Below are positions 21,009 to 54,859 of a stretch of 64,000 bases of DNA, one piece after another. The notes beneath the pieces are model-generated. The model saw nothing but the letters and a program-made list of their open reading frames with translations. It searched no databases and was not told where the DNA came from. This DNA comes from Deltaproteobacteria bacterium (GTDB lineage Bacteria; Desulfobacterota; Binatia; HRBIN30; CADEER01), in NCBI GenBank assembly GCA_029262455.1, contig JAJCZJ010000020.1:325078-389077 (forward strand). The letters run 5' to 3'. How positions within the stretch are numbered: the first letter of the stretch is position 1; each line of letters starts with the position of its first letter. The position numbers and the translations under genes are program-made.

Positions 21009-21114
21009 GCGAAACGACCTTCCGCCGTCCAGCGCAGGATCGGCTCTTGCGAGCCGAACAATCGCCGAGGCCCCCGACGCACGTAACCCCTGGAAGCGTG
21101 AAATCATCCAGACT

Positions 21115-27472: not shown

Positions 27473-27497
27473 CTGCGGTTCAAATCCCTTGCTCGGC

Positions 27498-29405: not shown

Positions 29406-30590
29406 ATGCCGAAAGAAGAGATCGAGGTCGAGGTTCGGGTTCGGCTGCGCGGAGGGCATTCCTACGATCTCACCCTATCATCCAACTCCGCTCTTCTGCG
29501 CGACTTGATCACGACGCTCGGCGGGTCGAGAAACTCGGTCCAGCCCCGACTCTTCCAGCTACCCCTCGACGGCGGCCAAACCTCCGCAACATTCGCCAGC
29601 GATCAGATATCAGCGATCGACACCCGTCCGCCACTCGACTGGAACACCATCACAACTGGTACGGAAGAGCGGTCCGCAAAAAGCCTCGGCGATGGTCCGC
29701 CTCTCGTCCTACGCGGCGCCCGCAACATTACACGCCAGCCATCCTACGAGGCAGCAGAGCGACGAGCGCGGCGGCTGATGGAACCGTTCGTGGCGCATCG
29801 ACAAGCCCGCCGTGCCGCACTGAAGAGCACTTGCGACGAGCTCGGCGGAAACACCTTCGTCGTCTCCCCCTTCAACCAAGGCTTCGTCCCGCTACTGCGC
29901 AACTGGGCCGCATCCTGTGATCGTTCCGGCATCGACTGCCGCGCCAGGACGGTACTGTTTCCGACCGACAACGGCGCCGACACTGCAGCACGCGAGCTCG
30001 GATTCGCAACCCTCTTCGACGGCGTCTCGTTTGACGGTGCCCCGCGCGACGCTATCAAAGTCTACGGGGACGCCCACTTTGCCGATTGTGTCTTCGCCAA
30101 GCTCGGCGCAGCAATCGACATGCTCGCTCTCGGCTACGACATCCTACTCCAGGATATGGATCTCGTCTGGTTCAAAGACCCGCTCCCCGGACTCAAAACT
30201 CGAGCGATGGCCGACGATCTGGACTTACAGTTCATGCGCGACATGAATCCGCGCTTCCAGCCGCTGTACTACAACTCCGGCTTCGTATTTATGCGCAACA
30301 ACGAATTCACCCGCCAAACCTGGAACACCATCTTCGACGCCTTTGCGGCGGTCGTGTTCTACCGCTCCGATCAAACCGTCGTGAACCAGGTCGTCGACTG
30401 CTACAAAGAGCGAGGATTGCGAGCCGCCCGTCTTCCAGATCGCTACGTAGATGGACAACTGCTGATCCGGGCCCAAACAAAACGCCGGCCTCTACCGCCA
30501 GATTCGATCGTGGCTCACGTCAACTGGACCGGAAACCTTGCCGAGAAGATCGCTCGGCTCAAAGCACTCGAACTGTGGTTCATCGACTGA
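29406..30590 (+). CDS. Unassigned N-terminal ~75-aa domain fused to a GT77/PF03407-like nucleotide-diphospho-sugar transferase
   Basis: ORF 29367..30590, ATG 29406. ILLQDMDLVWFKDPLPGL (DxD) and PLYYNSGFVFMRN are typical of Nucleotid_trans/GT77. N-terminus is described in the findings. Confidence 0.65.
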   Translation: MPKEEIEVEVRVRLRGGHSYDLTLSSNSALLRDLITTLGGSRNSVQPRLFQLPLDGGQTSATFASDQISAIDTRPPLDWNTITTGTEERSAKSLGDGPPLVLRGARNITRQPSYEAAERRARRLMEPFVAHRQARRAALKSTCDELGGNTFVVSPFNQGFVPLLRNWAASCDRSGIDCRARTVLFPTDNGADTAARELGFATLFDGVSFDGAPRDAIKVYGDAHFADCVFAKLGAAIDMLALGYDILLQDMDLVWFKDPLPGLKTRAMADDLDLQFMRDMNPRFQPLYYNSGFVFMRNNEFTRQTWNTIFDAFAAVVFYRSDQTVVNQVVDCYKERGLRAARLPDRYVDGQLLIRAQTKRRPLPPDSIVAHVNWTGNLAEKIARLKALELWFID

Positions 30591-30673: not shown

Positions 30674-31942
30674 ATGCCGACATTTGTTGGCGACACCTTA
30701 CCGGAGGCGCTTCGAGCCTTGGACTGCTCAAAATCCATCGAAACTCGTGTCCTGCCGCGCGCAGTGGCCTTCGGTCGCTTGCTTCTCGCTATCGCGGCGG
30801 CACTTGCCGTGGTGACAGCTCCGCATAGGGCGCCGGCAGCCCAGATCAAGTTCACGGGATTTGCCCAAATCAACGGCGCCCCGAGCGGACCGTTCGCAGC
30901 ATTCACAATGAATGAGGTCGTCGATATGACGATCACGATCGACGAGACTACGGCCGATTCGAATGGCGCCGGCGGCGCCGGATCATACAGCGATCCGACC
31001 TCGACCGCATTGTTCGAGGGACAGACCTCCGTGCAGATGGTCACTTTCACCGGCTTCGGCTTCGAACTCCTCGATTCGACGCGACTCGACCCGGCCAACG
31101 GCCTCGTCTCATCGAGCCCGAGCGCGGCGTACGTCGAGGACTGGGACCTGACCAACCTGTCGCCGATTTCGAACGTCGACGACCTTCCGACCATCATTGC
31201 CGAGTTGCCCAATGTGAACATTGGAACCGTCAGCGCCAACTTTTCGATACAACAACTGCCCGCCGGCCCGACCACGCTCTTCCTCGGGCTCAAGCCAACC
31301 GTCACGGTCACCGACTTTTGCGGCAACGGCATCGTCGAGGCCCCGGAAGCGTGTGACGATCCGGTGTGTTGCAACCCGACCTGCACCGCAATCATAGCGA
31401 ACGGAACTGAATGCCGCGCTTCAGCCGGCGTCTGTGATGTGGCCGAGACCTGCAGCAACGGCGCATGCCCCGTCGACGGCTTCGCCTCGATCGGCACCGT
31501 GTGCAACCCGTCATTGGGCGTCTGTGATCCAGAGGAAGTGTGCAGCGGCTCGAGCGCGGAATGCCCGCCGGACACGCTGACTCAGTTCACCTGTGGCACG
31601 ATCTGCGGCGCCCCGGTAGACGAGTGCGACGTTGCCGACATCTGCGTCTCCGGCAACGTCGATTGCCCACCGATGGGGACAATGTGCACACCGACACCGG
31701 TTCCGACTCCGACGCCCACGCCCGTTCCCGAAAATGGGTCCGGGGACGGGGCTTGCAGCGACGGTCTCGACAACGACAACGACAACCTCATCGACTGCGA
31801 CGACCCTGATTGCCTCGACGTCGAGGCATGCGAAACCGTGCACGCACCGACGCTCTCGCCAGGTGGATTGACGATCACCGTGCTCATCCTCGCCCTCATC
31901 GGCTTGTTGGCGATGGGGCGGGCAGTGCTCCGGAAGAACTGA
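30674..31942 (+). CDS. Secreted Cys-rich protein with disintegrin-like motifs, a PT linker, a DxDxD motif and an IPTL-CTERM-like tail
   Basis: Inner part of ORF 30086..31942. Start is ATG 30674 or GTG 30764 (MAFGRLLLAIAAALAVVTA signal). CGNGIVEAPEACDD, three copies of C-x5-CD-x2-E-x-C-x(4,5)-CP-x-D, TPTPVPTPTPTPVP, DGLDNDNDNLIDCDDPDC, APTLSPGGLTITVLILALIGLLAMGRAVLRKN. Confidence 0.7.
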   Translation: MPTFVGDTLPEALRALDCSKSIETRVLPRAVAFGRLLLAIAAALAVVTAPHRAPAAQIKFTGFAQINGAPSGPFAAFTMNEVVDMTITIDETTADSNGAGGAGSYSDPTSTALFEGQTSVQMVTFTGFGFELLDSTRLDPANGLVSSSPSAAYVEDWDLTNLSPISNVDDLPTIIAELPNVNIGTVSANFSIQQLPAGPTTLFLGLKPTVTVTDFCGNGIVEAPEACDDPVCCNPTCTAIIANGTECRASAGVCDVAETCSNGACPVDGFASIGTVCNPSLGVCDPEEVCSGSSAECPPDTLTQFTCGTICGAPVDECDVADICVSGNVDCPPMGTMCTPTPVPTPTPTPVPENGSGDGACSDGLDNDNDNLIDCDDPDCLDVEACETVHAPTLSPGGLTITVLILALIGLLAMGRAVLRKN

Positions 31943-31962: not shown

Positions 31963-32469
31963 ATGAGCGACTCCAAAAAGACAAGAAAGCAGCTAATCGA
32001 AGAACTCGAACAACTTCGTGGTCAAGTCGCGCAGCGACAGCAGTCGCAGTCGGACAACAGTGCACCGGCGCTTGCCGGCGACGTTTCACGACGCACCGCG
32101 CTAAAGGTCGCCTGGACCGCGCCGGTCATTTTGGCAATCCCTCTCCAGGCCGATCGCTCTGGCGCCCAACCTCCGGTCGGAACGGTGGCCCCGGGCTGTC
32201 CCACCATGACCCCGACCAACGCGGCCCCTCCGACTAGCTCGCCGACCTTGTTCCCAACGACCGCTGAGCCGACGATTTCGCCGACTCAACCAGTCCCGAC
32301 CACCAGGTTGCCAACGTCCAGTCCCACGAACGACCCGACATTGCGTCCGACCACCAGCCCGACGATCCCTGCCCCGACGGCTATGCCGACGGCGAGGCCG
32401 ACCACCAGCCCGACGATCCCTGCTCCGACGCTTTCCCCGACCCCTGGTTTCCCGACGCTTTCCCCGTAA
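31963..32469 (+). CDS. Pro/Thr-rich small protein with a conserved N-terminal helix and an SRRTALK Tat-like motif; candidate substrate/precursor 1
   Basis: Inner part of ORF 31810..32469, ATG 31963 lies 20 nt after the upstream stop. MSDSKKTRKQLIEELEQLRGQV...DVSRRTALKVAWTAPVILAIPL, then about 90 aa with about 26 Pro, mostly as P-T. Paralog of 45413..45892. Confidence 0.7.
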   Translation: MSDSKKTRKQLIEELEQLRGQVAQRQQSQSDNSAPALAGDVSRRTALKVAWTAPVILAIPLQADRSGAQPPVGTVAPGCPTMTPTNAAPPTSSPTLFPTTAEPTISPTQPVPTTRLPTSSPTNDPTLRPTTSPTIPAPTAMPTARPTTSPTIPAPTLSPTPGFPTLSP

Positions 32470-32611: not shown

Positions 32612-33976
32612 ATGTCGTCAGGAAACAGCGTAGAAACGCCGCCTACCAACTCTGGAGACTCCCCACGAGCACGGGGTGCGGCGGCTCGGCGGGTACGTCC
32701 GCGGCAGCGGGGCGGGCTCGAGACTTTCGAAGTACACAACGAAATCGTCGTGCTTCCCGGCGAGGGGGACCGCGTTTACGCGCTGAACGAGTCCGGTAAG
32801 GAGATCTTCGGCCTCTGCGACGGTCGCCACACCCTAGAGGCAATGGTCGACCAACTGGCGTCGAGGTACGACGCGCCTGACGTCGCGATCATGGGCGACG
32901 TGTCCGCAGCGATATTCGACCTCCACGGCCTCGGGCTGGTCGATATTCCTCCACCGGCTGACGCAGCTGCATCGATCGAGCCGCAGACCTCGGTCAAGGC
33001 ACGACCCAACGTGCGTTTCGTCTTCGGCATAGAGGACGTGCCCTATTTCCACTGGCAGCTTGCCATCCTCTTCGAGTCGCTCGTCGGCCAATTGCCCGAC
33101 GGTTGGGACGTCACCGTCGTCGTTTGCAACGACGAAGCACCGATTTCCGACGAGCTCATGAAGATCGTTTCCGAGTACGGTGTTCGCATCATGACCGGCA
33201 CCAGTCTCGCCGATCGCCACAGTCTCGACTTCGCCGGCGGCGGTGATCGCTACGTTCCGATGAACCGAGTCGAAGCACTCAGCGTCATTCGGCAAATCGT
33301 CGAACCCGAAGACGTCGTTTGCCTTCTGGACACCGACGTCTTCCTGTACGGCAACCTTCAAGAACAACTCTTCCCGACCGGCAACGCAATGGCCCGCAAC
33401 TGGATCATCTCCGAAGATCGGTACTTCGCGTTCTCGACCAACAACGAACGAGGACTGTCGCTCCCGAAGCTGCTCGAAGCCCTGGGGTGCGAGCAGGAGT
33501 TCAAACCCGGTGGCGTAGCGGTCTTCTTGACGGGAGAGACGATCCAACGCGAGCGCGTCATCCCCGACATTTTCCGTTTCCTTCAGGTTCTGTTCCTGCT
33601 CGGGAAAATCGTCGACGCACCAGCGCACGGCGTTTGGGTCGCCGAAATGGCATGCTTCGCAATGGCCATGTACCCCAACGAAATCGACTACGAGCTTCTC
33701 GACATCCCGCAATTCGCCGTCCAGGAGCAGCATGCTGAAGTCGCCCCCGACGGTTCGTTCTTCCACTACTACACCGACATCAACGACGGCGGGGGATCAA
33801 ATGGTCCGTTTTTCGAATCGCAGTGGCATAAACAGTTATTTCACCAGTCCAACATGCTCCTCGAAGACTTCGACAGCTTCAGAGTGAACGCCAAAGGCCG
33901 CCTCGAGCAGCGCTTCTTCGAAATCGCCGACAAGGCGAGAAAGCGCCTTTACGGCATCGAACGCACGGGCAAGTAG
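32612..33976 (+). CDS. PqqD-like domain fused to a GT95/GT96-like (HPAT / peptidyl-Ser galactosyltransferase-like) glycosyltransferase
   Basis: PqqD-like VYALNESGKEIFGLCDGRHTLEAMVDQLASRYD...AIFDLHGLGLV. GT part: FVFGIEDVPYFHWQLAILFESL, VVCLLDTDVFLYG, VWVAEMACFAMAMY. Confidence 0.6.
   Translation: MSSGNSVETPPTNSGDSPRARGAAARRVRPRQRGGLETFEVHNEIVVLPGEGDRVYALNESGKEIFGLCDGRHTLEAMVDQLASRYDAPDVAIMGDVSAAIFDLHGLGLVDIPPPADAAASIEPQTSVKARPNVRFVFGIEDVPYFHWQLAILFESLVGQLPDGWDVTVVVCNDEAPISDELMKIVSEYGVRIMTGTSLADRHSLDFAGGGDRYVPMNRVEALSVIRQIVEPEDVVCLLDTDVFLYGNLQEQLFPTGNAMARNWIISEDRYFAFSTNNERGLSLPKLLEALGCEQEFKPGGVAVFLTGETIQRERVIPDIFRFLQVLFLLGKIVDAPAHGVWVAEMACFAMAMYPNEIDYELLDIPQFAVQEQHAEVAPDGSFFHYYTDINDGGGSNGPFFESQWHKQLFHQSNMLLEDFDSFRVNAKGRLEQRFFEIADKARKRLYGIERTGK
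32717..32947 (+). other. PqqD-like (RRE-type) domain, copy 1, N-terminal
   Basis: aa 36-112 of ORF 32612; pattern L.LN..g..IW.LCDG..T..EI...L matches PF05402 by eye. Confidence 0.6.
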
Positions 33977-33980: not shown

Positions 33981-34598
33981 GTGTTGTCAATGTTCGATAC
34001 GCCCGCACACCTCGAGCAGCAGACGCGCGAGCAACAGGCCGCAGCCCGGTACTGCGGGCTCGGCTTCAAAAAGGCCACGCTGCCCTCCGAGGTCTTGCAA
34101 CGGTTGCGCCAACACCTGGAAACGAACAGCCGCCGATTCCGCGCCGAGGAGCCCATCGACTACCTCGTCAACCCGGACCCCGGGAAGATTCCGGCCCTTT
34201 ATTTCGAGGACAAAGAATTCAACGCCACCCTAAGTCGCGAGCTACAAGGATTGCACGAAGAGTGGGCCGGAAGGAGTCTGACCGAGTCCGCCTGCTACGG
34301 CATCCGCGTCTATCAACGCGGCAGCTTTCTCTACAACCACGTCGACCACACCGACACACACATCATCAGCTCTTCGATCTGCGTCGACCACCGCCTCGAC
34401 AAGCCGTGGCCCCTCTACGTCGAGGATATCGACGGCAATCCCCACCAGATCGATCTCGACCCTGGCGACATACTGTTCTACGAGGGAGCCCGCCTGCGAC
34501 ACGGCCGTGCCTATCCACTCGAGGGTGACTACTACGCATCCATTTTCGTCCACTATCGACCCGCAAATCTCTGGTCTTCGCGGCTCGTTGGCACCTAG
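33981..34598 (+). CDS. 2OG-Fe(II) oxygenase, prolyl 4-hydroxylase-like
   Basis: YGIRVYQRGSFLYNHVDHTD (HxD) and distal GDILFYEGARLRHGRAYPLEGDYYASIFVHYRP. Lies 4 nt after the upstream stop. Confidence 0.7.
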   Translation: MLSMFDTPAHLEQQTREQQAAARYCGLGFKKATLPSEVLQRLRQHLETNSRRFRAEEPIDYLVNPDPGKIPALYFEDKEFNATLSRELQGLHEEWAGRSLTESACYGIRVYQRGSFLYNHVDHTDTHIISSSICVDHRLDKPWPLYVEDIDGNPHQIDLDPGDILFYEGARLRHGRAYPLEGDYYASIFVHYRPANLWSSRLVGT

Positions 34599-34640: not shown

Positions 34641-36644
34641 GTGAGACATCTACTCTATACAAACTACCAGTCCGGTCAGTCGGGTTTGAGCAACGGCATC
34701 ATGTCGATCGAGCTGGGCGTGGTCCTCGCGTTCCTGACGAATCGGTTTCTCCTGCTCGATGGCAACATCTCCCCGCCGGCCAATATCGTGTCGTACGGCG
34801 ATCGAGTCGACAACAGCCAGCCGAGCCGCGTCACCGACCTGATCGACCTACCGGTCGCCTGGAGTGAGCCAGGAAGCGTCGACGTGTCCAAGTTGCCGTT
34901 CCTCGAATTGAGCGACGACCATCTGGGGAGTGCCGCGTTCTATGTCCCCGGCACCGTCGACATCCGATCCGCCGACGCGGAAGCGTTCGCCAACGGCAGG
35001 ACAGTGTGGCTCAACGCTGGCGGCTCGCTCGACGAGATCCCGGTGCTGCGAGTGTCCGAGGATCACAGCAAAGACAATCTTCGATACAATCTCAACTACT
35101 ACTCGTACTTCTTCTACCTCGACGACGAAACGCGTCGCTCCGTCTACCGCATGCTCGAGCGGATGCAACCAAAGCAGGACCTAGGGGAGCTGGCGAAGCG
35201 CGTCGCCGGCGATCTCGGAGCATTCAACGCGGTGCACTTGCGACGCGGTGACTTCAAGGTGACCTATGGAGTCACCACCCTCGACCGTCAACCTTGGGAA
35301 GCAATCGAGGCGCTCGAGCATCACTTCAAACGCGACGACACTCTGGTCTTCGTGACCGACGAGCGCGACGACCCGTTCTTCGACGAGATCAAGAAGGTCT
35401 ATACGCATCACGTATTCATCGATCACCACATCCTCGACGACTACGAGAAGGACTTCGCCGCATTGCAGCACCGCGACAGCATCGCCTTGGCCTATCTTTC
35501 CCAGCTCGTGGCGGCCGAATCCGCCGACTTCATTGGCACCATGACCAGCACGTTCACCGCCATCATCCAGCGCTACCGCGGCAATCGCGGCAAGGCCGAG
35601 AGTTTCAAGTACCTTTGGAACGAGCTCCCGGACGACGGCGATCGTCTCGAACGCGGCCGTCATCCGGTTAGTGAGTGCGTCCCGATGGACCGCGGCATGA
35701 TGGTCGAAGAGTCGTCGGGTCCGTACTCATGGAATCGCTACAACAAGAGGATCGCCGCCAACTGGATGCGCGAATGGCCCGAAAGTTTTCTGACCCAAGA
35801 GAGCCTCGAAACCGGCAAATTGACGACCGGGGCCAGCCCCGTTGCCCGCCCCATCGTTCTGGTTCGTCCCGAAAGGACGAAAGTCGAGGTCGCGTTCGAC
35901 GGCTTGAGCATCATTCTAAACTCGCAAGTGCCTCGCGTTGCGACCAAGCTGAGCGAAGCCTTCGAATCACGCCAAGCTGCGAGTCCAGCGAACGTCATCG
36001 GGGAGTTCGAGGTTGCTGAAGAAGACGGCGACTTCCGTCTTCTGCAACGCGGCCAGGAAATCGCCACCGCAGCAAGCTACGAGGAGTTGGCGCGCACGTT
36101 AAAACTCCGCATGGTGCCGATCTTTGTCGGTGCGCGCCGCCGGCACGTGTGGCTGGAAGCTTTTTCCTTCCGTAGAGCAGGCCATGCGCTGGTTCTCGCC
36201 GGCGACATGGGTCCTCCATCGGACTGGCTGCCGGACGCCATGTGCTCGAACGGCTGGGAGCTGCTGTGGGACGAGATCGTCCCGATCCGCCTGGAAGACT
36301 GTACCGTCACACCGTTCGGCCGCACGACCTGGCCGAAGGGCGCAGCCCTGCGCATCGACCGTACGCCCTGTCGCGTCAGCGGCCTGATCGTCACCAGCCG
36401 ACAAGTCCAGCGCCGCGACACCTTGACCGTCTTGTCCCCAGCCACCGGGGTGGCGGAGTTGATCGGCCGCTGCGTCGACTTCCGCACCGACCGCAAGCGG
36501 GCGGTAGAACGCCTGTGCAAGCTGGTCGAGAAACGAACCGTAGGCAGACTGTCCTTCAGCCGCGCCGAGACCGCTGTCGATCTCCTCACGCGCCCCTTCC
36601 TCGACGCGGAGCGTGAGTCCGCCCACGGTACAAAGTCTGCATGA
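34641..36644 (+). CDS. O-fucosyltransferase-like (PF10250-type) GT domain fused to an HprK-related-kinase-like domain with a degenerate P-loop
   Basis: GLSNGIMSIELGVVLAFLTNRFLLL, FNAVHLRRGDF, ADFIGTMTSTFTAIIQRYRG. C-terminal half: VEVAFDGLSIILNS...HVWLEAFSFRRAGHALVLAGDMGPPSDWLPDAMCSNGWELLWDEIVPI. Confidence 0.55.
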   Translation: MRHLLYTNYQSGQSGLSNGIMSIELGVVLAFLTNRFLLLDGNISPPANIVSYGDRVDNSQPSRVTDLIDLPVAWSEPGSVDVSKLPFLELSDDHLGSAAFYVPGTVDIRSADAEAFANGRTVWLNAGGSLDEIPVLRVSEDHSKDNLRYNLNYYSYFFYLDDETRRSVYRMLERMQPKQDLGELAKRVAGDLGAFNAVHLRRGDFKVTYGVTTLDRQPWEAIEALEHHFKRDDTLVFVTDERDDPFFDEIKKVYTHHVFIDHHILDDYEKDFAALQHRDSIALAYLSQLVAAESADFIGTMTSTFTAIIQRYRGNRGKAESFKYLWNELPDDGDRLERGRHPVSECVPMDRGMMVEESSGPYSWNRYNKRIAANWMREWPESFLTQESLETGKLTTGASPVARPIVLVRPERTKVEVAFDGLSIILNSQVPRVATKLSEAFESRQAASPANVIGEFEVAEEDGDFRLLQRGQEIATAASYEELARTLKLRMVPIFVGARRRHVWLEAFSFRRAGHALVLAGDMGPPSDWLPDAMCSNGWELLWDEIVPIRLEDCTVTPFGRTTWPKGAALRIDRTPCRVSGLIVTSRQVQRRDTLTVLSPATGVAELIGRCVDFRTDRKRAVERLCKLVEKRTVGRLSFSRAETAVDLLTRPFLDAERESAHGTKSA

Positions 36645-37630
36645 CAGACCAAGCAACCGCACCGCGCCAGATCGACATCCGCATCTCCACCATCGGCGGG
36701 CACGAGTATCGGTTGAATCTCCGCGAAGACGCCGTCCATTTGCGCGACCTCTTTACTCGATTCGTCAACCGACCGGCGACTGGGGCTGTCCGAGCTCCTG
36801 AATTCATCCAACTGCCCCTCGACGGAGGCAACGCTTCCTGCACGATCGCCGTCGATCAGATTGTGTCGATCGTCACCACGCCACCAGTCGTCATCGAAGT
36901 GCAACAACCCGCCGTCGAGCCAAACGTAATTCCAGATGTGCCGGCAGTGGTCGCGCCACCCCAGATCCGGCGCGCACACTACACGGTGATCGACGACTTT
37001 CTCACCGTCGATGAGCACCGAGACATGCTGGCGTTGGCATTGAGCGAGAAGGACAGCTTCGAACCCGGTACGGTGCAGGGTGAACCGAGTCCACACCGAC
37101 GAAACAGCGTCATCATGAACTTCGCAGACTCGGCGCACGGAACACTGCTGACAAGTCGTCTGCTCGTTTGGTTTCCATTGATCGCAAAGGCGCTGAAGGA
37201 ACCACTGTTTCCGCTCAAGACGGTCGAGTCGCAACTGACCGCCGCCAACGACGGAGACTACTATAAGCCTCACCTCGATACCGACGGGAAGACCCCCGAT
37301 TTCCGGGTCATCGCGTGCGTCTACTATTTCTTCCGCGAGCCAAAAGGGTTCACGGGCGGCGACCTACGCCTCTATGATTCCATCGAAACAGGTGGCGAAA
37401 TCTGTCAGGCGGATTCCTTCCAAGACATTCGGCCGGCAAGCAATCGCTTGGTCGCATTCACCTGCGAGACCTTCCACGAGCTGCTCGCGACTCGCTGCCC
37501 GTCCAAGGATATCGAAGACAGTCGTTTTGCGGTGACCGCGTGGTTTCACCGCAGCGGCGCACCGGACCCCGACGCCAAGTTCGGTTGGGGACATTATCGT
37601 TGCGGCGAAGTTCCGGAGGCACTGCGGTGA
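36641..37630 (+). CDS. Unassigned N-terminal ~80-aa domain fused to a 2OG-Fe(II) oxygenase (PF13640-like)
   Basis: ATGA overlap with the upstream stop. YYKPHLDTDG (HxD), GGDLRLYD, NRLVAFTCETFHEL, RFAVTAWFH. Confidence 0.7.
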   Translation: MTDQATAPRQIDIRISTIGGHEYRLNLREDAVHLRDLFTRFVNRPATGAVRAPEFIQLPLDGGNASCTIAVDQIVSIVTTPPVVIEVQQPAVEPNVIPDVPAVVAPPQIRRAHYTVIDDFLTVDEHRDMLALALSEKDSFEPGTVQGEPSPHRRNSVIMNFADSAHGTLLTSRLLVWFPLIAKALKEPLFPLKTVESQLTAANDGDYYKPHLDTDGKTPDFRVIACVYYFFREPKGFTGGDLRLYDSIETGGEICQADSFQDIRPASNRLVAFTCETFHELLATRCPSKDIEDSRFAVTAWFHRSGAPDPDAKFGWGHYRCGEVPEALR

Positions 37631-37802: not shown

Positions 37803-38930
37803 ATGATCTTCACGGTTTTCGTCGCACCGGTCGAACCAACGCAACAGTGGCGTGCCGATCTCCTCGAATACTCATGGCGACGCATCAAGCAGAGCGGCGA
37901 ACTGATCCGGCTGGCGCCAACCGCCCCCGGACGCGCACCAGGTAGCAGAGGGAGAGTCGGGAGAACCGTCAAAACGTTCGACTGGAACCCCCACCCGTAC
38001 ACCCAGGACGTGTACGCCGGCTATCAGACAACCGCCGGCGTACTCGAGTGGTTGTTCAACGAGCCGGCCGAAGGAACAGTCCTTTTGCTGGATTCGAGCT
38101 GCATCCTACGCCACCCGGTTACAGCAGAGGTCGAACCAGGCCACGTGCGCGGGTCGTCGTGGCCGGAGATCCCACTTGGCACGGACGGCCCATTCGGCCT
38201 GCATGATGATCTGAAGTTTCTCGAATCCTATTGCGTCAACCGCAAGCTCCCCCTCGCTCCCGTGCGGATGCCGATTTTGATCCACACGGCGGACCTGCGA
38301 AAAATCGCGGCGCGCTGGCTCGAGCTTACGGCGTTGATTCGATCCCATGCCGTAGGCGTTCACGGAAAATACCTTCATGCAGATCGCGTCGCCTACACCG
38401 TCGCCGCCGCCGAATACCGCATCCTCCACACCCTTGACGACCTCGGCACTACGACGTCGGATACCGGCAAAGACGTTCCGATCGTCGACTACAGCACACC
38501 GATCAAGTCCAAACAGGGAGAGATCGTCTGGGACCGAAAGGTCTATCGACCATGGGAGGCAGTCTACACCGAAAATGCGCGCGCAGGCGCAGGCAGAGAC
38601 GTACTCGGGATCCTGAACGAGATGGTGACGCGCCGCGAATCGGGAGCCGAGCTTGCGGCAACACGTCCACAGCGGTGCTACGGGGTGCGGGAAGCACGAA
38701 TTCTCGACGACATTCATCTCGAAGTACCTGGGTGTGCCGACTTGATGTCGCTGAATCAATCCGCGGCTGCCATCTGGGAGCTGTGCAACGGCGAGAACAC
38801 ACTCGCCGAGATCGTCAGCGAGCTCGAGAGACAATTCGACGCGTCACGCGAAACCCTCATGACATCCGTCGAATCGACGGCGAGGGATTTGGAAAGCTCA
38901 GGTGCCATCGAGCTGGAGGAGCTGTTCTGA
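37803..38930 (+). CDS. GT95/GT96-like glycosyltransferase fused to a C-terminal PqqD-like domain
   Basis: IFTVFVAPVEPTQQWRADLLEYSWRRIKQSGELIRL, AGVLEWLFNEPAEGTVLLLDSSCILRHPV, ILIHTADLRKIAARWLELT, ADRVAYTVAAAEYRILH. C-terminus: LMSLNQSAAAIWELCNGENTLAEIVSELERQFD. Confidence 0.6.
   Translation: MIFTVFVAPVEPTQQWRADLLEYSWRRIKQSGELIRLAPTAPGRAPGSRGRVGRTVKTFDWNPHPYTQDVYAGYQTTAGVLEWLFNEPAEGTVLLLDSSCILRHPVTAEVEPGHVRGSSWPEIPLGTDGPFGLHDDLKFLESYCVNRKLPLAPVRMPILIHTADLRKIAARWLELTALIRSHAVGVHGKYLHADRVAYTVAAAEYRILHTLDDLGTTTSDTGKDVPIVDYSTPIKSKQGEIVWDRKVYRPWEAVYTENARAGAGRDVLGILNEMVTRRESGAELAATRPQRCYGVREARILDDIHLEVPGCADLMSLNQSAAAIWELCNGENTLAEIVSELERQFDASRETLMTSVESTARDLESSGAIELEELF
38679..38927 (+). other. PqqD-like domain, copy 2, C-terminal
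   Basis: Last ~82 aa of ORF 37803..38930. Confidence 0.6.
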
Positions 38931-40156
38931 TGGCATCCAAAGCAAAACCAAGCGCCAAAAAGTCCGTGCCGACCACAAAAACAAAGCACGCAGCAAAACG
39001 TGCCAAAGCCTCGGCCAAGAAAACAGCCAAAGCGCCGCCCGGAAAAGCCACGACAGCACGGGCGAAGAAGACCACCAAGACTCCGGCCTCCAAGAGCCCC
39101 AAAACCCGGACCCAAAGGACCCGGGCCCAAAAGCCCCGGGCCCGCAAAGCCGCGCTCAAAGTATCGCAAACGGTGTCGCCCAAAGGATCGCAAACGACTT
39201 CGAAGACGGAGCGAACGACCCCATCGCCTCGCGCAAAGTCGCGGCAGGCCACAAAACAACCCCAGATCTTCGTGTCGATCGCCTCCTACCGCGACCAGTT
39301 TCTTCACTTCACCATCGAGTCGGTGCTCAAACAGGCGACGTACCCAGAACGGTTGACCTTCGGCCTCTGCTGGCAAGCCGACGACACCGAGCAACTCGAT
39401 CAATACCTGCACGATCCGCGTTTCCGCATTCGCAAGTACCCGTACTACGCGAGCCTCGGCTACGGTTGGGCAAGAGCCGAGATCCAAAAACTATACGCCG
39501 GCGAAGAGTACCATCTACTGATCGATTCTCACACGTATCTCGCCAAGGGGTGGGACGAGAATCTGATCGCGCAACTCGAGAGCAAGCCGGGCGAGAAGCC
39601 GCTACTGACGACCAGCTCACCCCCTTTCACCTTCGACAATGACGGCAACGTCGTAATCCCGTGGCAAGGGACCGAACACGACGGCGTGCCGCTGATGAAG
39701 TGCGCACGAATCCAACCGGCAGGGTGGGTCGACATCCAGATGTCCAATGAGCGCAAGTCCACCAAACATCAAACCACCGGATTGGTGTGCTGTAACTTTG
39801 TCTTCACGCACGGGGCTTGGATCCGCGAAGTGCCCGAGGATCCGGCGATGATCAACGCCGGCCACGAGTCAGCCCTTTCGGTTCGTACCTTCACCCACGG
39901 ATACGACATCTACCTGCCCGACGAAATTCAAATCTGGCACCTCGACTACAACAACTACCCGAACGGTGAGCGCAACAAGGTATGGGAAGCAAAGTCCGAC
40001 AGTTGGCAGTCTGAGGGCACCGAGATCATGCTGCGGCGGCTGCAAGCGCTGTTCTACAACCGCGGCGACCGCGCCTCGCTCGGCCGCTACGGACTCGGTC
40101 GATCCCGCACCGTAGCCGACTGGGCGGAGATCACCGGACTCGACCTCAGTGACTGA
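38930..40156 (+). CDS. Lys/Ala/Thr/Pro-rich basic N-terminal extension (~111 aa) fused to a GT60 Gnt1-like (PF11397) glycosyltransferase
   Basis: Inner part of ORF 38552..40156. ATGA overlap with the upstream stop, GGAGGAG SD at 38915-38921. MASKAKPSAKKSVPTTKTKHAAKRAKASAKK..., then QIFVSIASYRDQFL, LLIDSHTY. Confidence 0.65.
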   Translation: MASKAKPSAKKSVPTTKTKHAAKRAKASAKKTAKAPPGKATTARAKKTTKTPASKSPKTRTQRTRAQKPRARKAALKVSQTVSPKGSQTTSKTERTTPSPRAKSRQATKQPQIFVSIASYRDQFLHFTIESVLKQATYPERLTFGLCWQADDTEQLDQYLHDPRFRIRKYPYYASLGYGWARAEIQKLYAGEEYHLLIDSHTYLAKGWDENLIAQLESKPGEKPLLTTSSPPFTFDNDGNVVIPWQGTEHDGVPLMKCARIQPAGWVDIQMSNERKSTKHQTTGLVCCNFVFTHGAWIREVPEDPAMINAGHESALSVRTFTHGYDIYLPDEIQIWHLDYNNYPNGERNKVWEAKSDSWQSEGTEIMLRRLQALFYNRGDRASLGRYGLGRSRTVADWAEITGLDLSD

Positions 40157-41942
40157 CGTCGACTCCGCACTACTGCCAATTCCCCAACCCGAGTGGCGTG
40201 CTTCTTTATCCGGCGACGGCGCGGCAGTTGATGTCCTGATTTTAAGCAAGGACCGCGCCTGCCAACTCGACGGACTGCTGCGCACGATGCGCGCGTTCCT
40301 GACCATCCCACACCGGAAATACGTACTGTACAAGACGTCTAATTTGGCGTTCGAGCGCGGCTACGACATGCTCCGCCGGTGGAATCCCGAGGTCGAGTTC
40401 ATCGACGAGGCGCAAACGTTTCGACAATGCTACCTCGACCTCGTGGCAAGGATCGCCGCCGGGCCTGGTCGCTACTGGATGCCGGTGATGGACGACATGA
40501 TCTTCACTCGCACGTTCACCGCACAGCCACTCATCGACCTCCTCGACACAGACGAGGACGTGCTGGCGATCTCTCTGCGCCTCGGCGAGAACATTACCTA
40601 TTGCTACACCCGAAACGCTCCAACCACACCTCCGGACTTCAGCAACGGACACCGTTGGGAATGGAGAACAGCCAGCCCAGGCTACTGGAACTATCCAATG
40701 TCCGTCGACGCCAACATCTACCGCACGGCGGAAATGGCCGAATACATCCCGACCCTCCAATTCGGCAAGGCTGAAGTCATCGAGGCACGCATGGCCGGGG
40801 TGCCCTTGAACCGCCCCCATATGCTGTGTGAACCGACCCCCAGCGTACTCAATCTCGCGATCAACCGCGTTCAACACACCTTCAAGAATCGGCACGGCAC
40901 AATCACGCCAGAAGCCCTGAACGGCGCTTTCCTCGCGGGTTTCGCGATGGATGTGCGCCCGTTGCTGGGTCGAACCTTCAACGCCTGTCACGTCGAGGTC
41001 GAGCTGTCCTTGGTCCCCGATGCGCGCGAGCGCCCCGGCGCAACGCCCCTCTCTTCGACCGGCTGGAAACCACAGCGAAACGGCGCCGTCGTCGTGACCG
41101 AGAGCCATGCTGTCGTGACGCTCAAGAGGAACGGAACGAAGCTCAAACTCAATCAGAGCGCCGAAGAGATCTGGAAACTGTGCGACGGAACACGAACGCC
41201 CGAGGACATCCAAAACGAGCTCGCGCAACATTTTGACGCAACCCCGCGCCAGCTTCACAGCGGCGTACGAAGCGCCCTGGCGAATTTCATCAATCACGGC
41301 CTTCTCCGTCAGGAACGCCCGGAAGGCGCATACCGCCGCATCGACCTGCGCCAGATTCCCTGCTTCGTGATCAATTGCGAAGCCGATGCTGAGAAGGACA
41401 CGTTGATGAAGCGTCAGCTCGCTGAGCTCGGGATACCGTACGAACGTGTACCCGGGATCGCCGCAAGCCCGGATTGGGTCGGCGTCGCGCTGTCGCACCT
41501 CAAAGTGCTTCGCCTGACCCGCTCGACGACACCCTTCCTGGTGCTCGAGGACGATTGCTTGTTCAACGACCGCTTCCAACCAGTGTGGCAAGTACCGGTC
41601 GAGGCCGACGCCCTGTATCTCGGCGTTTCCGAGTTCGGCCTCGAGACCCCCGGTCACTTCAGCTGGGGCCGCCGGCGCAAGAACCAATGGAGACCCTACG
41701 ACCGGTCCTTCCTCCGCATTTTCAACATGCTCGCACGCCATGCGGTCGTGTACCTTTCCAACGACTACTGCGAGCAAGTCATCCAATCGCAAATCGAAGC
41801 ACTGACGAATCGAAGTTTGCCGTACCCTGGGGACATCGGCTGCGCGATGCTGCAAGCATCGCACGTCGTCCTGACCCCGAACGAACCGATCTGCCGGCAA
41901 ACCGGTCGTGACTCGACCGTGCGTCCGTTGCCGGAGCTCTGA
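40149..41942 (+). CDS. Three-domain protein: GT-A-like domain, central PqqD-like domain, GT25-like domain
   Basis: VDVLILSKDRACQLDGLLRTM; central KLKLNQSAEEIWKLCDGTRTPEDIQNELAQHFD; C-terminal IPCFVINCEADAEKDTLMKRQLAELGIPYERVPGI...FLVLEDDC. Confidence 0.6.
   Translation: MTDVDSALLPIPQPEWRASLSGDGAAVDVLILSKDRACQLDGLLRTMRAFLTIPHRKYVLYKTSNLAFERGYDMLRRWNPEVEFIDEAQTFRQCYLDLVARIAAGPGRYWMPVMDDMIFTRTFTAQPLIDLLDTDEDVLAISLRLGENITYCYTRNAPTTPPDFSNGHRWEWRTASPGYWNYPMSVDANIYRTAEMAEYIPTLQFGKAEVIEARMAGVPLNRPHMLCEPTPSVLNLAINRVQHTFKNRHGTITPEALNGAFLAGFAMDVRPLLGRTFNACHVEVELSLVPDARERPGATPLSSTGWKPQRNGAVVVTESHAVVTLKRNGTKLKLNQSAEEIWKLCDGTRTPEDIQNELAQHFDATPRQLHSGVRSALANFINHGLLRQERPEGAYRRIDLRQIPCFVINCEADAEKDTLMKRQLAELGIPYERVPGIAASPDWVGVALSHLKVLRLTRSTTPFLVLEDDCLFNDRFQPVWQVPVEADALYLGVSEFGLETPGHFSWGRRRKNQWRPYDRSFLRIFNMLARHAVVYLSNDYCEQVIQSQIEALTNRSLPYPGDIGCAMLQASHVVLTPNEPICRQTGRDSTVRPLPEL
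41079..41315 (+). other. PqqD-like domain, copy 3, internal
   Basis: aa 311-389 of ORF 40149..41942. Confidence 0.6.
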
Positions 41943-41977: not shown

Positions 41978-44900
41978 GTGAAAAAGGGCACAATCCACGA
42001 TCTCTTCTCCCGCACCGCTTGCGTCGTGTCCGACAGGCACCGATTCATCTATTTGACGGCGCAAAACGCCACGTCTTCCCTGAAGGCCGAGCTGTCGAAC
42101 GAGCACTGCGGCGGCGTTGTCCTCGCCCGCGCACAGGTGGCTGATAAACTCTGGAACCAATACTTTACGTTCGCCTTCCTGCGCGACCCGCTGACGCGCT
42201 TTCTCTCCGCCTATCAGGAAGTGTCTCTGCACATGGAGCGTGACAAACTCGAACCGCGCCCTTTCGGCCGGATGCCCGACGGCCTCGATCGCTTTCAGGC
42301 ATTTCTCGCGGACGTCGAGCAGAACGGTCCGTGGAACGAGCACATTGCACTCCAGCTAGCCTTCGTCGAGCGCCGAAGAATCGACTTTTGGGGGCTCGTC
42401 GAAACGCTGCAAGACGACTTCCAACAAATCTACACCCGGCTGGGATTGGGGACCTGTCCCGTTCTGCCAAAACGCCGCTCTCGCAGCGGCCGTGAGGAAA
42501 AGGACGGCATCTCGCGCTTCGCCTTCCATCCGGAGGACCTCGATGCGACGACAATTGAGCGCATCTACGACCTCTACCGTGAGGACGTCTTGCTGATTCG
42601 AGCGGTTCGCCCCGACGCACCTGAAATGCAGCCGCACTCAACCCGTGCCGCACCGCCCCCCGGAATGGTGCAGGTGGCGATCGCCCTGGCCAACGGCGGC
42701 GAATACTCCCTCGAACTTCCGCCCGGCCAACCAGAGCTGGGCGCTCTGCAAGCTGTGGTATCACCACAACAATCCGATGGACGTTTTCTCGGCCCGCAAG
42801 TTCTGCAGGTTCCACTGCGTGGTGGCAATTCCGCGCTGACGTTTTCCACGCAGCACCTCGTTCGTCTCGAGCTACGCCCCCCCGACGCCCGAGAACTGCG
42901 CCGAATCGAGGCGCCGGCCACCGGCACGGGCAACTCCGGAGTGAATCTAATAAACGTCGGGAACAAGCGGCCGCCAACCGAGGACCCATCGAGCAATATC
43001 GACGAGGCGCATCTCGGTGGCTACATTCGTGCGGCCAATACACCGATTCTCCACAGCGCCGCAGGCCCACACGGGGACCGGGGAACCTGGAATCCGCTGC
43101 TGTGGCGTTGGGCAATCGAAGATCTCGACGTGCGATCAGTGATCGATATCGGATGCGGCGAGGGACACGCCGCCGGATTTTTCTCCGACGGCGGGTGTGA
43201 AGTGCTCGCGCTCGATGGCAGCCTTCAAGCGCGCTATTCCAGCGTTGTTCCAGATCGCCACGTCGTACACGACTTCGTCGAGGGACCTTTCGTCCCAGAG
43301 AAAAGCTTCGACATGGCCTGGACCTGCGAGTTCGTCGAACACGTCGAGGCGCGTTTTCTCCACAATTTCCTGGCTACGATCGCATCGAGCCGCAAGTACG
43401 TGATGATGACGTTCGCCAGCCCGACACAAACAGGCTGGCATCACGTCAATTGCCAAGAACAGGGTTACTGGGTCGATCAGTTGGGACGCCTCGGGTTTCG
43501 CCTGGACGACGATCTAACCGAGAGAGGCCGAGCCTTGGCTCACTCTCATTTTCGCGAACGTGGCCTGGTCTTCGTCCGGCACCATCGAAAAGGCGAGTCA
43601 TCGAAGTCCACAGAACCGTCGCTGCGCGCGACTGCCGAGAGTCACTGTCTCGACCCGCTGCCGGTCCAATCCATGCAGGTCGCACAGCGCGAGAGCGATG
43701 CCTTCTACCTGTTTGTCGACATCTTCGTGCATCCGACCGCACCGAGAATCGTGGCGATCTCACCACCCTATGGCGAAGACTGGAATCCTAACGTTGTCGG
43801 CATCGACTACGATGCCGTCGACCTTGTATTCGGTGACATACGCGTCCGCGGCCGCTGCCTGCGGCACCGTCTCGACTCCTGGGAGCCTTGCATGCTTCTC
43901 GAGTTCGAGGACGAAGACCTAACAGAGCGCATTCGGGCCAACGACGAGATCAACGTCACGATCGAGGCCGGCTCGCATTCGTCGTCCTTCGTCCTGACGA
44001 CCCGCCCAGCGCCAGCCTACGATGTCGCAATGAGCCTCGTCGTACGCAACGAAAACCGCTGGATCCGCACGTTTCTCGACTACTACCTCGACTGCGTCAA
44101 AGCCGACCACGTCTTCATCTACGACAACGGAACGTCGGAACAAGACCAGCTGCTTTCCATTCTTCACCCGTACCGAGAGCGCGGGCAAGTGACGTACATC
44201 CCGTGGGATTTTCGCTGGCGCAACCGCATCGACCGCAAGATGATCGGCCAACCGACACAGGAGGCTCACTCCCTTGCAAGATTCGCAAACACCGGGTGGA
44301 TCGGCTTTCTCGACATCGACGAGTTCCTGCGCTTGCCGCACAGCACCCTGCCACAATTTCTCGCTCGCTTCGCGTCCGCGGAGGTCGACGGACTCTCGTT
44401 CGGTATCCGGTGGTTTTCTTACGAGGGCCCGCTTGCACTCGATGAGATTACGAGTGTGCCACTGCAATTCCTCCACTCGCGCCGCAATGAGCTCGGCCGA
44501 AAACGGCAGAAGTTCTTCGTCAAAGGCGGCGGCTCGAAGTTTCTTCGCTTGCATTGGCTCGAAGACGGAGGTCGCGAACTGCCCATCGACGACACCGAGA
44601 TCTACTTTCACCACTACGATCAACGTCCCGGCCGTTTCGAAGAAGGAAAGCAAATCGGAGGAGCGCGCGACGAATACATGCTGCGCTTCGCCGACCAGCT
44701 CTCGCGCCCCGAGCGGCACAGAGCCCCTCTAACCGAGAGAGGATGGATCACCCACATCAACTCTTCGATCGAACGCGCCGAACGCGACACCTCCAAACTC
44801 ACCCCGGAAGTCCTCGCCGTCGACGGCATGTGCGGGCGCTACACCCGTCACTTCTACAACAACCTCTGCAGCTTCGGAGGATGCCGCTACCTCGAGATCG

Positions 44901-45385
44901 GCAGCTATCACGGGGCCAGCACCTGCGCGGCAATCTTCGGCAACGACGTATCCGCCGTGTGCATCGACAATTGGACACAGTTTCACGGCAAGCGAAGCCG
45001 CTTCGAGGATGCCCTACGACGCTTCCGAGGAGATCGCTCGGTCCGAGTCATCGAGCAAAACTGCTTCGAAGTAGACGCCTCAAGCCTCGGCCCATTCGAC
45101 ATCTATCTCTACGATGGCGACCACAGCCAGCAGAACCAGTACCGAGCCTTGCAGCACTTCGTTCAGACGCTGGCCAAGCTCGCCGTAGTCGTCATCGACG
45201 ACTGGAATCGTCGGCATATCCGTCGGGGGACACAGGACGCGATTCGGGACCTCGAACTCGATGTAATCTTCGACCGAGAGATCCTACTGCCAACCGACCA
45301 GACGGCGGATGAAAACCGTGACGCTGGAGCGCGAACTTGGTGGAACGGACTCTACATCATGCTCGTTCGCAGTAGAACGCAGTAG
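41978..45385 (+). CDS. 1135-aa five-module enzyme: sulfotransferase, shared ~75-aa domain, class I SAM-MTase, GT92/Glyco_tranf_2_4-like, second SAM-MTase (Methyltransf_24-like)
   Basis: FTFAFLRDPLTRFLSAY; MVQVAIALANGGEYSLELPP...LQVPLRGGNSALTF; VIDIGCGEGHAAGF; SLVVRNENRWIRTFLDYYL...FIYDNGTS...FLDIDEFL; YLEIGSYHGAST...IYLYDGDHS...VVIDDWN. GTG start has a weak SD. Confidence 0.65.
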   Translation: MKKGTIHDLFSRTACVVSDRHRFIYLTAQNATSSLKAELSNEHCGGVVLARAQVADKLWNQYFTFAFLRDPLTRFLSAYQEVSLHMERDKLEPRPFGRMPDGLDRFQAFLADVEQNGPWNEHIALQLAFVERRRIDFWGLVETLQDDFQQIYTRLGLGTCPVLPKRRSRSGREEKDGISRFAFHPEDLDATTIERIYDLYREDVLLIRAVRPDAPEMQPHSTRAAPPPGMVQVAIALANGGEYSLELPPGQPELGALQAVVSPQQSDGRFLGPQVLQVPLRGGNSALTFSTQHLVRLELRPPDARELRRIEAPATGTGNSGVNLINVGNKRPPTEDPSSNIDEAHLGGYIRAANTPILHSAAGPHGDRGTWNPLLWRWAIEDLDVRSVIDIGCGEGHAAGFFSDGGCEVLALDGSLQARYSSVVPDRHVVHDFVEGPFVPEKSFDMAWTCEFVEHVEARFLHNFLATIASSRKYVMMTFASPTQTGWHHVNCQEQGYWVDQLGRLGFRLDDDLTERGRALAHSHFRERGLVFVRHHRKGESSKSTEPSLRATAESHCLDPLPVQSMQVAQRESDAFYLFVDIFVHPTAPRIVAISPPYGEDWNPNVVGIDYDAVDLVFGDIRVRGRCLRHRLDSWEPCMLLEFEDEDLTERIRANDEINVTIEAGSHSSSFVLTTRPAPAYDVAMSLVVRNENRWIRTFLDYYLDCVKADHVFIYDNGTSEQDQLLSILHPYRERGQVTYIPWDFRWRNRIDRKMIGQPTQEAHSLARFANTGWIGFLDIDEFLRLPHSTLPQFLARFASAEVDGLSFGIRWFSYEGPLALDEITSVPLQFLHSRRNELGRKRQKFFVKGGGSKFLRLHWLEDGGRELPIDDTEIYFHHYDQRPGRFEEGKQIGGARDEYMLRFADQLSRPERHRAPLTERGWITHINSSIERAERDTSKLTPEVLAVDGMCGRYTRHFYNNLCSFGGCRYLEIGSYHGASTCAAIFGNDVSAVCIDNWTQFHGKRSRFEDALRRFRGDRSVRVIEQNCFEVDASSLGPFDIYLYDGDHSQQNQYRALQHFVQTLAKLAVVVIDDWNRRHIRRGTQDAIRDLELDVIFDREILLPTDQTADENRDAGARTWWNGLYIMLVRSRTQ

Positions 45386-49114: not shown

Positions 49115-49228
49115 GGTCAGTCTGTATTTGCCTCTAACAGCTCACGTTGCAAGGATCAGCCGGGAACAATCGATGCATTCACTTCCTCATGCTTCGCCCG
49201 AAAGAGTAGACTCGAAGGTCAGGCAACA

Positions 49229-54837: not shown

Positions 54838-54859
54838 GGAATCCCCCGTGGTCTTCGCC

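Follow-up and report, generated by a model that had tools for sequence, protein, structure and literature searches.

We examined a stretch of 64,000 nucleotides from a member of the Desulfobacterota (Deltaproteobacteria bacterium, assembly GCA_029262455.1, contig JAJCZJ010000020.1, positions 325,078 to 389,077 of the forward strand), hereafter the window, in which a gene for a glycosyltransferase of family GT77 lies beside genes for a prolyl 4-hydroxylase (P4H)-like oxygenase, several other transferases, and proteins with proline- and threonine-rich repeats. The product of the GT77 gene adds to a known enzyme family a member whose domain architecture is new, and its surroundings seem to encode a bacterial variant, so far undescribed, of hydroxyproline (Hyp)-type protein glycosylation. 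The open reading frame (ORF), on the forward strand at 29367/29406..30590, contains in its translation the two peptides, DILLQDMDLVWFKDPLPGL and PLYYNSGFVFMRNNEFT, that the initial annotation had quoted as the DxD and N.GF blocks of the Nucleotid_trans family. That annotation placed the gene at 29640-30590. The end was correct, but position 29640 is an in-frame internal tryptophan codon, and translation probably starts at the ATG at 29406: an AGGA sequence lies 11 nucleotides upstream of it, and alignments with the homologs begin at this codon. Because the proposed start was too late, a conserved N-terminal domain of 75 residues had been left out. Scans for promoters, terminators, Rfam families, and tRNAs around the gene were uninformative.

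The protein has a single Pfam match, to PF03407 (Nucleotid_trans, the Pfam family that corresponds to CAZy GT77), with E 4.2e-15 and 56.7 bits, the curated cutoff being 22 bits, over profile positions 5-208 of 208. It is the C-terminal 250 residues that match the profile, and the catalytic domain scored by itself reached 58.6 bits. All of 54 diverse members of the family (54/54) likewise matched PF03407. Conservation was judged from alignments of 21 close homologs and of the 54 diverse members, and the DxD and N-S-G-F blocks, which can be read directly on the DNA, proved to be near-invariant across the family, as was a third block close to the C-terminus (Table 1). By precedent among GT-A enzymes, H371 of this third block is a candidate third metal ligand. 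The protein has neither a signal peptide nor a transmembrane (TM) segment (its maximum 19-residue Kyte-Doolittle window is 1.44), and it should therefore be cytoplasmic.

An AlphaFold2 model built from 21 sequences (mean predicted local distance difference test score, pLDDT, 87.8; predicted template modeling score, pTM, 0.78) places the N-terminal domain and the catalytic domain at either end of a helical linker, and the catalytic domain is predicted to adopt a GT-A fold. The original assignment, to a GT77/PF03407-like family rather than to another GT-A family, is thus supported by the Pfam match, by motif conservation, and by the modeled fold. No PDB chain matched the protein by sequence or by profile, and no GT77 structure was found in the copy of the PDB that we searched. 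The nearest solved structures, listed by PDB id and by the two figures given for each, were WbbM (6u4b; 14.6), glycogenin (1zcu / 1ll0; 14.5, 1.1e-6), the Skp1 alpha-galactosyltransferase Gat1 (6mw8 / 6mw5; 14.4, 7.7e-6), PBCV-1 A064R (2p6w; 14.1, 1.5e-4), LARGE1 (7ui6; 14.1), UGGT (6fsn; 13.9), GlyE (5gvv; 13.9), and LgtC (1g9r; 13.8, 4.0e-6), the second figure not being reported for WbbM, LARGE1, UGGT, and GlyE. Except for A064R, these neighbors are retaining, DxD/Mn-dependent GT-A enzymes. As modeled, the window GT77 is closest in fold to retaining GT8-type enzymes, and its chemistry is probably retaining. XEG113 of plants is itself termed a retaining enzyme (PMC5371791), in accord with the CAZy description of GT77 as retaining.

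A word-indexed search of 5.8 billion proteins returned 20 homologs of the window GT77, the best at 57% identity, and a word-indexed search with a profile of 54 sequences returned 19 close relatives only. When 1.84 billion cluster representatives were searched exhaustively with a profile, on the other hand, 4134 matched at E<1e-3, 340 of them at E<1e-30. With few close and thousands of distant homologs, the window GT77 therefore represents a small subclade within a family that is large. Among the distant PF03407 matches, many are proteins of ~600 residues with the catalytic domain at the C-terminus, and the two clusters of this kind that carry names came from stramenopile algae, Skeletonema potamos and Chrysophaeum taylorii. 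In a quick neighbor-joining tree without bootstrap, all of the bacterial GT77s derived from the loci described below formed one clade that excluded both algal proteins.

The N-terminal domain that had been overlooked occurs three times in the window. A tblastn search with the GT77 protein against the window aligned its residues 7-77 with residues 10-83 of the P4H-like oxygenase (41.6% identity, E 1e-11) and with residues 231-302 of a 1135-residue multidomain enzyme (28% identity, E 5e-5), and the three-way alignment has 15 invariant positions. Three other enzymes of the window carry PqqD domains, which belong to the RRE (recognition element) type known from peptides that are synthesized on ribosomes and modified after translation (RiPPs); a Pfam scan found no PqqD domain on the window GT77. 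We interpret the 75-residue domain, from its distribution among these sequences, as a putative second docking or recruitment module that would bind either the precursor or a partner enzyme, and refer to it as the docking domain. A hidden Markov model (HMM) of the domain located it in the P4H orthologs of seven related loci (L008, L009, L012, L013, L020, L027, and L031), in the multidomain enzymes of L001/L007 and of L030, and in ORFs of L006, of L027, and, weakly, of L026. Run against the database, the profile found no match at the database-wide E threshold; the distribution given here covers 33 loci.

The genes downstream of GT77 are listed in Table 1 together with those that flank them. A profile of the PqqD domain from the gene that follows the first candidate substrate matched the leader-binding RRE of the lasso-peptide protein TbiB1 (5v1u; E 2e-7). 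The 205-residue protein encoded next had no Pfam or PDB match, and its residue pattern alone makes it a putative second 2-oxoglutarate (2OG) oxygenase. The assignment of the HPAT-like transferase draws on its orthologs: seven of 11 match the HPAT family PF23452 (best E 7.3e-13), and HPAT appears in the precomputed annotation of the orthologs in L004 and L006. Beyond the gene for the 1135-residue enzyme, the opposite strand carries a second Pro/Thr protein, a sulfotransferase, a second PF11397 gene, and a homolog of GDP-mannose 3,5-epimerase.

Table 1. Features of the window: the GT77 gene and its parts, the gene cluster downstream, and flanking genes (positions are those of the window)
Feature	Coordinates	Strand	Evidence or remark
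Three ~707-726-aa proteins	within 16733-24116	+	weak C-terminal similarity to Streptococcus mutans PgfM1/PgfM2 membrane glycosyltransferases
PgfS-like polyprenol-phosphate GT2	20929-21939 (within 16733-24116)	+	
876-aa protein	24941-27571	-	divergent from GT77
MBOAT/DltB-like acyltransferase	27498-28907	-	divergent from GT77
GT77/PF03407 glycosyltransferase gene	29406..30590	+	394 aa, soluble; ORF, ATG with AGGA upstream, PF03407 match
Docking domain of GT77, ~75 aa (aa 7-77)	29424..29636	+	N-terminal; modeled aa 7-74 beta-beta-alpha-beta-beta-beta
Helical linker of GT77, aa 112-146	29739..29843	+	AlphaFold2 helices 112-130 and 132-146, pLDDT >90; partly conserved in homologs; joins docking and catalytic domains
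GT-A catalytic domain of GT77, aa 149-394	29850..30590	+	AlphaFold2 model
DxD motif, D250-M-D252	30153..30161	+	D250 and D252 invariant in 21 close and 54 diverse sequences
N-S-G-F block, N290-F293	30273..30284	+	N290 and G292 invariant, F293 at least 90% conserved
C-terminal H371-x-x-W374-T375 block	30516..30530	+	H371 and W374 invariant, T375 at least 90% conserved (21 and 54 sequences)
Cys-rich secreted protein	30674..31942	+	between GT77 and precursor; sub-threshold matches to disintegrin and acidic double-disulfide repeat
Candidate substrate 1	31963..32469	+	leader HMM E 1.7e-32; core 29% Pro, 26% Thr, 20 Pro-Thr dipeptides
PqqD/RRE plus unclassified domain with DTD motif	32612..33976	+	PqqD E 7.6e-14; D240 and D242 invariant
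205-aa protein	33981..34598	+	H-x-D...H...R pattern; H120, D122, H174, R176, and H191 invariant in 14 orthologs
O-FucT-like protein	34641..36644	+	PF10250 E 1.3e-5, below cutoff; conserved in related loci
P4H-like 2OG oxygenase	36641..37630	+	PF13640 E 3.9e-15; PDB 6t8m (P4H alpha subunit) E 4e-5
Docking domain of P4H-like oxygenase	36668-36889	+	
HPAT-like (GT95-like) transferase, 375 aa	37803..38930	+	C-terminal PqqD/RRE, PqqD E 1.9e-13
GT60/PF11397 (Gnt1-like) transferase a	38930..40156	+	PF11397 E 5e-44
Unknown N-terminal domain, PqqD, weak GT25-like region	40149..41942	+	PqqD E 3.6e-11; GT25 E 0.0038, below cutoff
1135-aa sulfotransferase - docking domain - methyltransferase - GT92 - methyltransferase	41978..45385	+	
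Docking domain of 1135-aa enzyme	42668-42883	+	
Candidate substrate 2	45413..45892	-	leader HMM E 8.9e-27; PT-containing core, C-terminal TM anchor, acidic tail
GT60/PF11397 transferase b	46893..47900	-	PF11397 E 1.1e-43
GDP-mannose 3,5-epimerase homolog	48116..49141	-	PDB 8sg0 and 2c59, plant-type, E 1e-93 to 1e-92
TPR protein	49229-51316		at the right boundary of the cluster
Rieske / cytochrome b / multihaem cytochrome c operon	53227-56455	-	ordinary respiratory genes beyond the right edge of the cluster

The cluster contains candidates for the substrate of these enzymes. An HMM of the leader identified 13 distinct members of a precursor family, two in the window and one in each of 11 related loci. 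The leader begins with a helix of the motif K.ELIEELE.LR, which is followed by a spacer and by a highly conserved (S/T)RR.aL...W.APVIL.V.L block that ends near A-x-A or AQ. The cores that follow are variable and consist of x-Pro-Thr repeats (FPTSFPTS, NPTNNPT, SPTSQPT, EPTRSPTQ, or VSPTVSPT), the proteins are 80-330 residues in length, and some have a C-terminal TM anchor (the second window copy and that of L001). The family thus has the conserved leader and variable core that are expected of RRE-type substrates. The block with paired arginines may equally be the element that is bound by the RRE domains. We considered whether the leader is a Tat signal, since SRR.ALK resembles the twin-arginine motif, yet the Pfam TAT_signal profile gave only E 9.6; the AW.APVIL block is, moreover, more conserved than the hydrophobic region of signal peptides usually is. 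Export of a glycosylated product by the Tat pathway would nonetheless be conceivable from the resemblance. The proposal that the docking domain binds the N-terminal helix of the leader was unsupported: the precursor of L004 lacks the helix, and the P4H of L004 retains the domain. A subset of precursors (L003 463-843; L013 8081-8671, reverse strand; L020 4430-5437, reverse strand; L031 5527-5925, reverse strand) ends in the motif (I/V)PVE(L/I)(T/S/Q)xF(E/D/K)(V/I), which may be a second recognition or sorting element and which is lacking in both precursors of the window.

To survey the cluster in other bacteria, we collected contigs encoding GT77 homologs, scanned one genome per GTDB species, and compared the sequences by tblastn with the proteins of the window. 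This yielded 27 distinct loci, from Acidobacteriota, Alphaproteobacteria, Gammaproteobacteria (among them Elongatibacter sediminis CH-27, a cultured bacterium; locus L013), and Acidimicrobiales. At least one marker of the cluster was present in 21 of the 27. A PF11397/GT60 gene was found within flanks of ~10 kb of the GT77 relative in 19 of the 27, most of which also hold genes for P4H, the HPAT-like-PqqD protein, the O-FucT-like protein, and the PqqD-containing glycosyltransferase, and genes for proteins with a leader and Pro-Thr (PT) repeats were present in 11 of the 27. In E. sediminis the order of genes matches that in the window: GT60b, precursor, PqqD-glycosyltransferase, 205-residue protein, O-FucT-like protein, P4H, HPAT-PqqD, GT60a, and PqqD protein. 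The initial annotation had the GT77 gene opening the operon, which is an accurate description of its position in the window but not of its relatives, in which GT77 is usually divergent from the core operon (L003/L008, L009, L013, L020, and L031).

Fusion proteins provide a further connection. A protein of 700 residues (P0031, locus L028/L033) joins in one chain an HPAT-like domain, a PqqD domain, and a GT77 catalytic domain, in that order. Elsewhere, GT77 is fused to a sulfotransferase (P0019 and P0027) or to a PLOD-type glycosyltransferase domain (P0030). Enzymes of consecutive steps in the protist Skp1 pathway are often fused (PMC8724618), and the HPAT-GT77 fusion is therefore what would be expected if GT77 acts directly after an HPAT-like initiator. 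Beside the gene for the fusion of HPAT, PqqD, and GT77, at 4150-8191 of L033 (= L028), we also noted a weak match to the catalytic domain of GH127 (beta-L-arabinofuranosidase-like) and a PMT_2 membrane glycosyltransferase.

We propose the following scheme. One or more 2OG-dependent prolyl hydroxylases would make Hyp on the leader-bearing (x-Pro-Thr)n proteins, the first sugars would be put in place by the GT60 (Gnt1-like) and HPAT-like transferases, and GT77 would then lengthen the O-glycan by another sugar. Three of the enzymes would be brought to the substrate through their fused PqqD/RRE domains; for GT77, P4H, and the sulfotransferase/methyltransferase/GT92 protein, it would be the 75-residue domain that holds them on the substrate or on an enzyme complex. 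For the window GT77 itself, we lean toward the view that it is a cytoplasmic, metal-dependent, and probably retaining tailoring glycosyltransferase that adds a sugar to the O-glycan of hydroxylated PT-repeat proteins. We infer its role as an extender by guilt by association. The initial annotation had suggested a chain-extending transferase for a Hyp-linked glycan, and that suggestion is strengthened by the co-localization of GT77 with genes for P4H, HPAT-like, GT60, and precursor proteins, by the HPAT-PqqD-GT77 fusion, and by the docking domain shared with P4H. The clustering and the one fusion suggest that P4H, the HPAT-like transferase, and GT77 may act jointly.

Several observations weigh against this reading. 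The window copy of the HPAT-like protein matched PF23452 at only E 0.13, and its assignment is transitive, through the orthologs. GT77 is the least conserved member of the cluster (37% identity between the window and L013, as against 46-73% for the core enzymes), and its position and strand vary between loci; low conservation and variable orientation are more what one would expect of a variable tailoring enzyme than of a core enzyme. Near six of the 27 relatives no cluster genes are present, although three of these loci have large flanks (the other three are short or edge-of-contig fragments), and the GT77 family is therefore not exclusive to the pathway. Among GT77s the HMM of the docking domain finds only the subclade of the window (L001/L007 and L003/L008), most relatives being without the domain, and a domain held in common with P4H, which acts on polypeptide, would suit a protein-directed, initiating GT77 equally well. 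No genes for the supply of UDP-L-Araf (UDP-Arap mutase or UDP-Xyl 4-epimerase) were found among the cluster ORFs scanned, in which the sole nucleotide-sugar enzyme is the GDP-mannose 3,5-epimerase homolog. Finally, threonine is present in every x-P-T repeat and is as conserved as proline.

The last of these observations bears on the alternative that survives best, namely that the pathway is as we propose but that the glycan is mucin-type and linked to Thr or Ser, its synthesis being started by a GT60 polypeptide alpha-GlcNAc transferase or by the O-FucT-like enzyme, with the 2OG oxygenases serving otherwise. O-glycosylation on Thr is known for the PT linkers of enzymes that bacteria secrete, every unit of the repeats is x-P-T, and the O-FucT-like protein is a conserved member of the core; GT60, too, includes Ser/Thr-directed polypeptide alpha-GlcNAc transferases in protists (PMC8724618). 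Against such a linkage stands a P4H-family oxygenase (PF13640, with a PDB match to P4H), whose gene belongs to the conserved core and which carries the docking domain; the HPAT-like proteins, whose sole characterized activity is on Hyp, are core members as well. We regard a Thr/Ser-linked glycan as unlikely, while according it more weight than the two alternatives that follow.

A different possibility is that GT77 is itself the protein-directed initiator and places the first sugar on Hyp, Thr, or Ser of the repeats. This would make sense of a docking domain held in common with P4H, an enzyme of the bare polypeptide, and the nearest solved folds include glycogenin and GlyE, which glycosylate proteins. 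Yet candidate initiators are already at hand in the cluster, namely two GT60 enzymes and one HPAT-like enzyme; the GT77 gene is variable and dispensable across clusters; and in P0031 the GT77 domain follows an HPAT-like domain, an arrangement found with consecutive steps (PMC8724618). Moreover, every characterized GT77 transfers to a sugar acceptor (PMC5371791, PMC8724618). We consider an initiating GT77 to be quite improbable. Less probable still is that GT77 is an ordinary polysaccharide, lipopolysaccharide, or capsule glycosyltransferase that merely adjoins the cluster and belongs with the MBOAT/DltB-like and GT-C/PgfS-like genes to one envelope-glycan locus: the window GT77 does adjoin MBOAT, with polyprenol-type glycosyltransferase genes further upstream, PF03407 is large (the 4134 representative clusters above), and the six relatives without cluster genes would be in keeping with it, but the docking domain is shared only with enzymes of the cluster, HPAT, PqqD, and GT77 occur in one chain, and co-localization in four bacterial groups despite a rearranged gene order is hard to explain as chance adjacency.

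The epimerase homolog implies, by its similarity, that GDP-L-galactose or GDP-L-gulose could be a building block. To our knowledge GDP-mannose 3,5-epimerase is uncommon in bacteria. Of the 27 loci, 12 contain an ortholog (at least 44% identity), which in three of them (L013, L019, and L027) lies directly beside GT77 on the same strand. We make no claim that GDP-L-galactose is the donor for GT77, since the two genes adjoin on the same strand in those three loci only; more natural users would be the O-FucT-like enzyme or the products of GT10 genes in L001 and L006.

Some features of individual genes deserve mention. Residues 500-570 of the O-FucT-like protein, in its C-terminal region, weakly match TIGR04352 (HprK-related kinase A) with E 1.3e-6, which is far below cutoff; the family is linked to PqqD-containing peptide-modification systems. 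The first GT60 protein has a basic, Lys/Ala/Thr-rich, low-complexity N-terminal extension of ~110 residues (AKPSAKKS...; 38930-39260, forward strand), and ahead of its gene stands a strong ribosome-binding site, GGAGGA, in overlap with the stop of the upstream gene. The Cys-rich secreted protein, which has no counterpart in any of the related loci, contains a PTPVPTPTPTPVP linker, and its C-terminal tail ('APTLSPGG + TM + RKN') resembles a sorting signal. On the far side of GT77, the MBOAT/DltB-like protein and the 876-residue protein may represent an O-acylation step; the pair also adjoins GT77 in the alphaproteobacterial locus L009, and the 876-residue protein is found again in L030 and L032. 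The PgfM- and PgfS-like genes further upstream may constitute an extracytoplasmic protein O-glycosylation module just ahead of the cluster.

O-glycosylation of Hyp is treated as a eukaryotic trait, of plant and algal cell-wall glycoproteins and of protist Skp1. Searches of open-access full texts found no paper that joins PqqD/RRE domains with hydroxyproline, prolyl hydroxylase, or glycosyltransferase families of the GT77, GT60, or HPAT type, and no report of Hyp O-glycosylation in bacteria was found in the open-access literature. A 2025 survey of RREs describes RRE fusions to GT2 (PF00535) enzymes only, and its main text contains neither prolyl hydroxylase nor hydroxyproline (PMC12710340). We tentatively put forward, as a real possibility rather than as the probable state of affairs, the broader idea that at least four bacterial groups carry out, in the cytoplasm and under the guidance of a leader, the hydroxylation and heavy O-glycosylation, sulfation, and methylation of x-Pro-Thr proteins by means of P4H, HPAT-like, GT60, and GT77 enzymes, with recruitment split between RREs and a previously undescribed 75-residue domain. 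If true, this would possibly be the first case of bacterial Hyp O-glycosylation and a plausible prokaryotic relative or source of the eukaryotic toolkit for Hyp glycosylation. A bacterial cluster with the same enzyme families, substrate genes, and RiPP-style domains would make the origin of that machinery testable, and the cultured E. sediminis would offer a compact genetic system for the specificities of GT77, GT60, and HPAT, which are hard to assay in plants. The docking domain could extend the RRE model by another kind of recognition module. Taken by itself, the GT77 gene offers less, namely a bacterial GT77 of new architecture for which there is a clear candidate substrate. Given that no GT77 structure was found in the PDB copy, a soluble bacterial GT77 is also an attractive target for crystallization.

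How does the cluster compare with known systems? Despite the resemblance in fold, the window GT77 is only 11-17% identical to GT8 enzymes (glycogenin, LgtC, and Skp1 Gat1), and Pfam assigns it to PF03407 and not to a GT8 family. With RRE-dependent RiPP systems, such as that of the lasso-peptide protein TbiB1, the cluster shares genes for leader/core precursors and three enzymes with PqqD domains, which resemble TbiB1 by profile. It differs in that the substrates of RiPP enzymes are short peptides, whereas those proposed here are repeat proteins of 80-330 residues, some of them membrane-anchored, and in that an RRE is absent from the window GT77 and present on its fusion homolog P0031. Neither a leader peptidase nor a dedicated exporter was identified in the cluster.

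In plants, extensin side chains are built by P4H, then HPAT (GT95), then RRA (GT77), and then XEG113 (GT77) (PMC5371791, PMC3797821). The window GT77 resembles RRA1-3 and XEG113 (GT77 clades A and C) in its PF03407 catalytic domain, and genes for P4H-like, HPAT-like, and GT77 enzymes, counterparts of those of the plant pathway, are clustered in the window. The plant enzymes, however, are type-II membrane proteins of the Golgi that use UDP-L-Araf as donor, whereas the window protein is soluble, bacterial, and equipped with an N-terminal docking domain. Likewise, the plant acceptor is contiguous Hyp (Ser-Hyp4, Ser-Pro3-5), whereas the candidate substrates of the window have isolated prolines in x-P-T.

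In the Skp1 pathway of Dictyostelium, the P4H PhyA is followed by Gnt1 (GT60) and later by the cytoplasmic GT77 AgtA, which has an additional domain that binds the substrate (PMC8724618). What the initial annotation stated of AgtA, and of RRA, XEG113, and RGXT, is consistent with the literature cited here (PMC5371791, PMC3797821, PMC8724618). The two systems are not identical: the extra domain of AgtA is a C-terminal WD40 propeller, whereas that of the window GT77 is an unrelated 75-residue N-terminal module; the substrate in Dictyostelium is Skp1, whereas the cluster has leader-bearing PT-repeat precursors and PqqD/RRE domains; and neither a PgtA-type GT2/GT74 enzyme nor a Pfam match to Skp1 or WD40 was found in the window cluster. 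In gene content, nonetheless, the combination of GT60 and GT77 is that of the Skp1 pathway, with two PF11397 genes and a soluble GT77 in the window, the two families together in 19 of 27 loci, and GT60 the most constant neighbor of GT77. AgtA, like the window GT77, is a soluble, cytoplasmic GT77 with an extra non-catalytic domain, and it acts on a Hyp-linked glycan that is started by a GT60 enzyme.

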